The position numbers were made by a program, and so were the translations under genes. Under the pieces are notes generated by a model that saw only the letters and a program-made list of their open reading frames with translations, did not search any database and was not told the DNA's origin. 58,445 nt of DNA, taken from UHGV virus genome UHGV-0021275; one strand, written 5' to 3'. Position 1 is the first letter of the stretch. Each line of letters begins with the position of its first letter. Source of the stretch: a virus. This document shows positions 7,690-8,302 of the stretch, one piece after another.

Positions 7690-7992
7690 TTATGCTGCAC
7701 AGAAAACATGACCGCCACTAAAACGCCCTTTCGCAAGCATCTGTCGGCTTTCCCAACGGTCGTGCGCGGCCTGTAGATTTATCCAAAAGCCTTCATCGAC
7801 ACCGAAAAGTACAGCCAGATGCGCAGCCTCTTCAACACTAAGACGACGGCTGTTGTTAATAATTTGCCCTACAACTTTGCGGGAAACACCCAGTGCTTTA
7901 GCCAGTTCAATCTGCGTAATACCTAGCGGTTTCATGAACTCTTCCAGTAACATCTCACCGACTGTGGTAGGTTCTGCAGTAGTCGTATCCAT
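7690..7992 (-). CDS. higA: HigA-family antitoxin (XRE-type HTH)
   Basis: 100 aa. HTH segment ITQIELAKALGVSRKVVGQIINNSRRLSVEEAAHLAVLFGV and FWINLQAAHD motif typical of HigA antidotes. Directly downstream of the HigB-like gene. Confidence 0.8.
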   Translation of the reverse strand: MDTTTAEPTTVGEMLLEEFMKPLGITQIELAKALGVSRKVVGQIINNSRRLSVEEAAHLAVLFGVDEGFWINLQAAHDRWESRQMLAKGRFSGGHVFCAA

Positions 7993-8002
7993 ATGTTACT
8001 CC

Positions 8003-8302
8003 TTACCGATATGTATGTGGATCAAGATACACGTCATACGCGTAGCCATCACGCCACTGAAAAATAAGTCGCCATTGCAAGCTAACCCGAATGCTGGACC
8101 AGCCATTCAAATTCCCCCGCAAACGTTCATAATTATTACCCGGCGGAACAAAAAGTGATGTTTCACAACTTGCCGCATCAAGCAATGACAGTTTGCGTCG
8201 CAGGGCTTTTTCTATCTGATTCGGAATCCCCGGGCCACGTACACCTGTGAAATAAAACCGGGCTAGTTCGCCGCCAGGTCCATCTTTAAAGCTACCTATC
8301 AT
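8003..8302 (-). CDS. higB: HigB-family toxin (RelE/ParE superfamily mRNA interferase)
   Basis: From the internal Met of track ORF 8003-8341: MIGSFKDG ... WSSIRVSLQWRLIFQWRDGYAYDVYLDPH, closely following the plasmid HigB pattern (MIKSFKHKG ... WSI.V...WRI.FQ...GDAY.L.YEDYH). Toxin-first order as in higBA. Confidence 0.8.
   Translation of the reverse strand: MIGSFKDGPGGELARFYFTGVRGPGIPNQIEKALRRKLSLLDAASCETSLFVPPGNNYERLRGNLNGWSSIRVSLQWRLIFQWRDGYAYDVYLDPHTYR

Follow-up and report, generated by a model that had tools for sequence, protein, structure and literature searches.

A HigBA/GraTA-type toxin–antitoxin pair with plasmid relatives, a candidate addiction cassette in an undescribed lineage of Escherichia coli podophages

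GraT, the toxin of the GraTA pair of Pseudomonas putida, is an experimentally toxic protein. GraTA is a chromosomal system with a toxin-first operon; in its structure (PDB code 6F8S), the active-site cleft of GraT surrounds the C-terminal histidine, His92 being the final residue, and the N-terminal 22 residues of the toxin are disordered (PMC6393540). The HigBA pair of Proteus vulgaris Rts1 (PDB codes 4MCT, 4PX8, and 4YPB) is likewise encoded toxin first and is a plasmid-borne "host inhibition of growth/killer" addiction module, whose toxin needs His54, Asp90, Tyr91, and His92 for activity, with Arg73 touching the scissile phosphate (PMC5027501). Toxin–antitoxin (TA) systems are also an established persistence device of phage-plasmids, TA-mediated stabilization being established for P1 (PMC11652158), and have been invoked for the lytic-looking crAssphage as well (PMC10983915). 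Here we describe a HigBA pair in the virus genome UHGV-0021275, a stretch of 58,445 nucleotides that was analyzed as a whole and is called the window below. The pair is encoded by two genes:

8003–8302, minus strand: higB, ATG start, 99 amino acids; HigB/GraT-type toxin of the RelE fold, a predicted ribosome-dependent mRNA endonuclease
7690–7992, minus strand: higA, ATG start, 100 amino acids; antidote of the helix-turn-helix (HTH)-XRE class, GraA/YbaQ type

With moderate confidence, we read this pair as a plasmid-derived, self-promoted, complete, and functional type II HigBA/GraTA addiction cassette that stabilizes an episomal state of the phage. The biochemistry of the pair is ordinary, a GraT/HigB-type mRNase with an HTH antidote; elements of this kind are already known, and the interest lies in the context.

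Both open reading frames (ORFs) are found exactly where a preliminary description of the window had placed a HigB/HigA pair (7690–8302, minus strand), and both products score above the family cut-offs. HigB matches the Pfam family HigB-like_toxin (PF05015) with an E value of 8e-27 and 94 bits (gathering score 27) over profile positions 7–91 of 91. The profile search proposed earlier was borne out for the antitoxin (TIGR02607, see below), whereas the toxin falls into the HigB-like or "plasmid killer" family of GraT type and not under the K-12 HigB_toxin model. When PDB was searched by sequence, GraT (6f8s_B) was the top match to HigB (E value of 3e-10) and P. vulgaris HigB came next; GraT is the closest solved homologue of the toxin by sequence, with ∼40% identity over the ordered core.

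An AlphaFold (AF2) model of HigB, computed with 41 homologues as input, reached a pLDDT of 93.3 and a pTM of 0.85. In a Foldseek comparison, the best superposition of the model, which covered the entire chain, was with P. vulgaris HigB (TM score 0.84, rmsd 2.0 Å, probability 1.0; TM range 0.79–0.85), and weaker matches were to GraT, RelE, YoeB, and YafQ. HigB is predicted to assume the RelE/microbial-RNase fold, and the RelE fold of the preliminary description is supported by this model. Two differences to GraT concern the termini. Whereas the N terminus of GraT is disordered, that of the phage toxin is predicted to be ordered (pLDDT 96), and the phage toxin ends in ...DPHTYR, beyond the position at which GraT ends with its histidine.

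Among the 41 homologues, E59 of HigB is invariant, and R72, R78, D94, H96, and Y98 are each at least 90% conserved. Three of these residues have aligned counterparts in P. vulgaris HigB, to which the phage toxin is only ∼30% identical: R78 corresponds to Arg73, D94 to Asp90, and H96 to His92. The P. vulgaris sequence used for this residue alignment agrees with the stretches shown in the PDB sequence search. As in GraT, a conserved histidine is found near the C terminus. Judged from these alignments, catalytic residues do not appear to be lacking, and those present are consistent with catalytic activity of phage HigB. We also considered an upstream GTG (8341) as the start of higB and dropped it in favor of the ATG at 8302, because the homologues comprise 98–99 amino acids and the GTG lies in the predicted promoter spacer, upstream of the predicted transcription start.

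HigA matches the NCBIfam equivalog TIGR02607 (antidote_HigA, "HigA family addiction module antitoxin") with 84.5 bits (cut-off 47.7) and Pfam HTH_3 with an E value of 2.4e-11, as expected for the HTH antidote proposed before. Its closest solved homologues by sequence include YbaQ (2eby, E value of 2.5e-17) and GraA (6f8s_A, E value of 3e-10). P. vulgaris HigA is not among the PDB sequence matches at E ≤ 1e-3, and we therefore assigned HigA to the GraA/YbaQ/TIGR02607 branch. A C-terminal "-AA" was considered as a conserved degron and dropped, since it is not kept in plasmid homologues.

The operon is organized toxin first on one strand, with higB (8302–8003) followed by higA (7992–7690) after a 10-nt gap, which is the order given in the preliminary description. 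The stop codon TAA of higB (8005–8003) overlaps the strong ribosome-binding site of higA, AAGGAG (8004–7999), and the ribosome-binding site of higB itself is weak, of the GGA type only. Three elements border the operon:

8332–8360, minus strand: predicted σ70 promoter of higBA, with a −35 element GTAGCA (8360–8355), a 17-nt spacer, and an extended −10 element TGgTACACT (8340–8332)
8329–8356: candidate HigA operator, an imperfect inverted repeat (I2), CATAGTGTACCA / TGGCGCACTATG, with 12-nt arms that are 83% complementary
7599–7625, both strands: bidirectional intrinsic terminator (inverted repeat I1), with a 10–11-bp G+C-rich stem and T-runs on each side

The inferred promoter is conserved in all phage relatives, and in an alignment of upstream regions (A6) its −35 and −10 elements line up with the −35 element TTGCAc and the extended −10 element TGaTATAAT of the plasmid homologues. 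Because it can be aligned with these homologues, the cassette seems to carry a promoter of its own. An own promoter also fits the conservation of a ∼270-bp upstream block, even though the upstream gene lies on the opposite strand in most relatives. The candidate operator overlaps the promoter spacer and the −10 element; the operator sequences of GraTA are unrelated to those of the phage cassette. At the other end, higBA is the final coding unit of the leftward arm. The terminator is shared by this arm and the rightward lysis cassette and lies between higA and the convergent genes for a spanin-like protein and the endolysin, so that the pair is indeed the last operon before a convergent terminator.

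From this layout and from homology, the following mechanism can be proposed. The σ70 promoter with its extended −10 element would transcribe higB and then higA, and the ribosome-binding site used for HigA would be far stronger than that used for HigB. By analogy with GraTA, a T-A2-T complex is expected, in which the HTH dimer of HigA would hold one HigB per monomer. Rather than plugging the active site, HigA would keep HigB off the ribosome by steric hindrance, as its homologue GraA does (PMC6393540), and it probably also represses the promoter via the overlapping inverted repeat. Should a cell lose the phage genome, or should expression from this genome be perturbed, the presumably labile HigA would no longer be replenished; free HigB would then enter the ribosomal A site and cleave mRNA, leading to arrest or death of the cell. 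Post-segregational killing of this kind would stabilize a plasmid-like or carrier state, in the way that phd-doc stabilizes P1.

The same layout bears on host shut-off, one of the roles suggested earlier, in which HigB is freed in the lytic cycle to break down the mRNA of the host. The pair is the last unit of the replication (early/middle) arm, where read-through could raise its expression during infection. Nevertheless, we disfavor this role and regard it as highly improbable, because higB is co-transcribed with a better-translated antitoxin and because phage relatives of the same architecture manage without the pair. HigB-type toxins, moreover, cut any translated mRNA, those of the phage included.

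The origin of the cassette was addressed by comparison with related elements. Its counterpart in pSTEC648_2 (CP061838.1), a closed circular 60,552-bp "plasmid" record from a sheep STEC (Shiga toxin-producing E. coli) strain with ∼80% backbone identity to the window, is found at the same place. Between the window and pSTEC648_2, higB shows 21 synonymous and 1 non-synonymous differences (dN/dS 0.012), and higA shows 33.5 synonymous and 1.5 non-synonymous differences (dN/dS 0.008). A dN/dS of ∼0.01 in both genes indicates that higB and higA are kept functional. Across phages, HigB is 100% identical in amino acid sequence, dS values of 0.2–0.4 notwithstanding, whereas the adjoining primase is only 55% identical.

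The next-closest toxins (71–75% identity) are encoded next to trfA/ssb on IncP-1-like conjugative plasmids and next to parM/stbB on an E. coli plasmid, and the antitoxins of these pairs are 70–71% identical to phage HigA. The plasmid pairs (L016, L018, and L025, with trfA or parM/stbB neighbors) share gene order, spacing, and an alignable extended −10 promoter with the phage cassette. They differ in residing on conjugative or mobilizable plasmids and in the absence of an AgrB-like element (see below) after the pair. In deposited phages, the best match to HigB is the "addiction module toxin" of D6 (46% identity), a P1-like plasmid prophage (PMC6799933). Both P1 with phd-doc and D6 with its RelE/HigB-like pair carry TA genes on a phage that persists extrachromosomally, as proposed here. 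In contrast to the podophage, however, P1 and D6 are myoviruses that possess plasmid replicons (repA/repL), ParAB, and a C1 repressor; of these features, the podophage has a recognizable ParB-family protein only.

TA genes are absent from the corresponding junction in relatives of the same gene order whose primase identity is 47%, 38%, and 27% (one of them marine). In these TA-less relatives, the primase and small ORFs run straight into convergent lysis or giant-protein genes. Ten contexts were displayed from genomes that share one primase type and whose endolysin is identical, and eight of them carry higBA. The remaining two carry a TacA antitoxin with a GNAT acetyltransferase toxin, in a slot equivalent to 7690–8302 of the window:

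L028, 5705–6501: TacA1 + GNAT pair
L033, 5725–6521: TacA1 + GNAT pair

The tacAT genomes retain the last ∼15 codons of higA as a remnant, beside the AgrB-like element. A further relative (L001) has an additional Phd/YefM-PIN pair, and most genomes of the L001 type have an apparently orphan 79-amino acid RelB gene. No empty slot was seen among close relatives. The exchange of higBA for tacAT together with the lack of an empty slot indicates that the junction is a TA slot, in which the presence of a TA system is conserved but not HigBA specifically. The pair is cargo at the junction of the replication arm and the lysis cassette, and its acquisition from the plasmid gene pool is part of our overall reading and held with the same moderate confidence.

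Some of these observations would also be expected of a purely selfish hitchhiker, which persists because genomes that lose the cassette kill their host and which brings no net benefit to the phage. Self-addiction predicts the very low dN/dS of both genes, and the lower divergence of the cassette relative to the flanking primase suggests movement between phage backbones. For the homologous graTA of P. putida, a published study concluded that systems of this sort are "rather selfish than beneficial" (PMC7280312). However, the replacement of higBA by tacAT and the absence of an empty slot in close relatives suggest selection for some TA system at this place, and the distant relatives in which the slot is empty were not seen in assemblies of E. 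coli-named isolates. We rank this explanation third among the roles and consider it improbable.

A role of the antitoxin alone, also proposed earlier, would be that of an anti-defense factor: HigA neutralizes a HigB-type abortive-infection toxin of the host, and higB is a passenger. Phages do carry antitoxin mimics, an apparently orphan RelB antitoxin gene is found beside the cassette in relatives, and HigA is 41% identical to the chromosomal YbaQ of E. coli. The data for the pair itself argue against this role. The toxin is intact and conserved, with the dN/dS of 0.012 given above, an unrelated TA pair (TacA/GNAT) can substitute for higBA, and a near-identical higB was found in 0 of 5,426 complete E. 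coli genomes. We also considered cross-neutralization of a host toxin via YbaQ-like loci and rejected it, since ybaQ of K-12 has no adjoining toxin gene and is an orphan. Taken together, this makes an antitoxin-only role very unlikely.

More weight can be given to HigBA as defense cargo. A resident HigBA would then act as an abortive-infection or superinfection-exclusion module: an invader shuts off transcription of host and episome, HigA decays, and HigB halts translation before the competing phage can finish its cycle. The own promoter and terminator resemble those of a moron that is expressed apart from the phage program, and the slot is a variable hotspot typical of defense islands (HigBA, TacAT, Phd/PIN, RelB, and low-GC ORFs such as orf117, described below). 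Neither protein, however, matched a curated PADLOC defense model, HigA alone giving a weak HTH match, and the nearest relatives of the pair reside in replication and stability regions of plasmids, not in defense islands. Although rather unlikely as the primary role, phage exclusion is compatible with addiction and does not exclude it. We therefore rank it second, behind addiction. Of the three roles suggested in the preliminary description, it is the one that stands as compatible; the plasmid-type addiction that we favor had been left out.

The context of the cassette is a complete phage genome. A giant LPD38 ORF of about 2306 codons on the plus strand (56488–58445 joined to 1–4963) reads from the end of the window into its start, and the window is therefore a closed circular permutation. 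Relatives encode LPD38 giant proteins of 2198–2444 amino acids with faint YkuD matches, and the marine relative has an LPD39 giant protein there. Structural and lysis genes encode TerL, the major head protein, an adaptor/portal protein, an internal virion protein, endolysin, holins, and lysozyme, and SU10_adaptor and LPD38 were matched as well, so that the set for morphogenesis, packaging, and lysis is complete. Other genes encode DNA polymerase A (PolA), a DUF927 primase-helicase, an SNF2 helicase, a PD-(D/E)XK nuclease, and ArdA. An assembly chimera can be ruled out: the window closes into a circle, and more than 20 independent assemblies, as well as the circular record CP061838.1, have this pair at an unchanged location.

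TerL is only about 33% identical to that of any deposited phage. By megablast, the TA region and 23 kb of the structural arm had no match in 50,697 INPHARED phage records, and scans of IMG/VR with primase peptides and with an invariant 26-mer of higB gave no match either. The possibility of a known phage or a common prophage was rejected, since there was no nucleotide match in INPHARED or in complete E. coli genomes, and we found no literature on pSTEC648_2 or on this phage group. The phage represents an undescribed lineage of E. coli podophages, which is absent from the phage reference collections searched.

In the assembly collection, the element recurs as stand-alone contigs of 55–63 kb and never inside larger ones (∼290 index blocks, none with a contig >200 kb). 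The exact HigB protein was found in 187 assembly-index blocks, with the longest contig at 50–200 kb in 112 of them and above that in none; for the endolysin, none of 99 index blocks had a contig >200 kb. The 90% cluster of HigB comprises about 190 contigs, most of the named ones labeled E. coli, and its longest contigs measure 46–62.8 kb. Contigs that are at most as long as the phage genome are unlike an integrated prophage. Their break points vary between assemblies, which fits a molecule that is circular or circularly permuted. Together with the closed "plasmid" record pSTEC648_2 and with the ParB-family protein and the 13-bp palindrome described below, this distribution points to persistent extrachromosomal carriage, as a phage-plasmid or in a stable carrier state, and the lineage is probably a phage-plasmid or carrier-state podophage group misannotated as plasmid. 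For a phage that acts as an autonomous ∼60-kb episome in E. coli isolates, addiction would be the most likely benefit of the cassette.

Several observations weigh against a functional addiction cassette in an episomal phage. In the toxin, the catalytic His54 and Tyr91 of P. vulgaris HigB are not identically kept, phage HigB having E59 and P95 at these positions; the conserved Y98 is close to P95, and GraT, by the PDB sequence alignment, also has a glutamate at the His54 position. The candidate operator is degenerate in pSTEC648_2, which is why we rate it a candidate only. The strong purifying selection on both genes is equally expected of a merely selfish cassette. PolA, the DUF927 primase-helicase, and the SNF2 helicase make up a replication module like that of lytic podophages, and an integrase, a repressor, ParA, or a plasmid Rep was not found among the genes scanned, many of which have no family match. 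Searches with ∼20 proteins of the early arm and control region against PHROGs, Pfam, and NCBIfam returned only matches to ParB, ArdA, and generic HTH proteins, and among the divergent control-region genes no CI/Cro-like or other repressor indicative of lysogeny control was recognized. The element is also found in 0 of 5,426 complete RefSeq E. coli genomes, which is weak evidence because only a few occurrences are expected at the observed frequency. Finally, stand-alone contigs would also arise from chronic carrier culture or contamination. The label "virulent-looking" given to the phage in the preliminary description accordingly fits its gene content but not its distribution, with autonomous contigs, a "plasmid" record, and a ParB-family protein.

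Proteins with an HTH motif are limited to HigA, the ParB-family protein, and a 254-amino acid HTH_23 protein. Features that may relate to maintenance and replication of the genome are the following:

20206–21141: ParB/RepB/Spo0J-family protein (TIGR00180, 64.4 bits, cut-off 58.45)
34209, 34313, 34717, 36727, 5000, 40523, and 54842, among other sites: 13-bp palindrome TGCGCAWTGCGCA
33680–34400: non-coding control region with iteron-like direct and inverted repeats of the GTTGAGCA type and an AT-rich stretch (33990–34032)

The palindrome occurs in 16 copies (at most one mismatch), as compared with 0.2 expected. Its copies are concentrated at 34.2–36.8 kb, in the divergent control region, and are also scattered genome-wide; the ParB/KorB-like protein or a global regulator may bind to them. 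The non-coding region between the two arms is a candidate replication origin.

Directly downstream of the antitoxin gene, the cassette is followed by a structured RNA element:

7595–7680, minus strand: AgrB-like structured RNA, directly 3′ of the higA stop codon, ending in the bidirectional terminator

In E. coli, AgrB serves as the antisense antitoxin RNA in the dinQ type I system (dinQ-agrAB). The element scores 48.1 bits against Rfam RF02891 (gathering score 40) and fills the stretch of ∼95 nt that separates higA from the terminator, for which the preliminary description gave no feature. It is present in every relative of the E. coli lineage, the tacAT variants included (47.7–61 bits in 11 relatives); the TA-less relatives and the IncP plasmids lack it. 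In a BLAST search of phages and plasmids, pSTEC648_2 was the only match. Compensatory changes preserve the first stem, and agrA/agrB of K-12 have the loop GCYACCAAC as well. We considered the RNA as an antitoxin to host dinQ or to a dinQ-like gene of the phage and rejected this. Complementarity to dinQ is weak and marginal, with −38 kcal/mol for the 5′ tail and K-12 dinQ mRNA as compared with a shuffle mean of −29 (sd 3.3) and −66.6 for agrB, and neither a second AgrB-like copy nor a complementary target nor a DinQ-like ORF was found in the window.

Upstream of the cassette, a block of non-coding features is conserved on the plus strand:

8437–8555, plus strand: conserved block with a palindrome, a promoter-like site, and a terminator hairpin
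8437–8458: perfect 10+10 palindrome GCAACCATAAcaTTATGGTTGC
8422–8449, plus strand: promoter-like site
about 8521–8555, plus strand: intrinsic-terminator hairpin

This block is nearly identical in the window and in four relatives (L001, L002, L003, and L008), whatever gene adjoins upstream. The features at 8422–8555 possibly specify a short (∼100-nt) divergent transcript or an insulator. A copy related to the palindrome is found at 35472–35493; positions 35476 and 37685 have the motif CAATAATATTATGGT. Farther upstream, orf117 (8577–8930, minus strand) fills a second variable slot, between a gene for a 94-amino acid protein and higBA. Its GC content is 0.36, that of the genome 0.51, and it has no match in Pfam, PHROG, or PADLOC. 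The genes in this slot of the relatives are unrelated to it, encode 125–170 amino acids, and lie on the opposite strand.

A broader proposition can be put forward only tentatively, and we hold it to be less likely than the addiction role itself. It describes an unrecognized E. coli podophage lineage with lytic-type replication, without an integrase or a recognizable repressor, that turned into a persistent episome, as a phage-plasmid or in a stable carrier state, via plasmid-derived cargo. This cargo would comprise an obligatory TA slot with exchangeable content (either HigBA or TacAT, optionally joined by RelB and Phd/PIN), ParB with its dispersed palindromes, and the AgrB-like RNA, and HigBA would be the key determinant of persistence as compared with the TA-less relatives.

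If the cassette keeps a lytic-looking podophage resident, the lineage would offer a tractable E. coli model of how virulent-type phages become persistent episomes, a question recently raised for crAssphage. The alternation of HigBA and TacAT in one slot is a natural experiment on the exchangeability of TA systems, and elements of this type are likely misannotated as plasmids in surveillance genomes.

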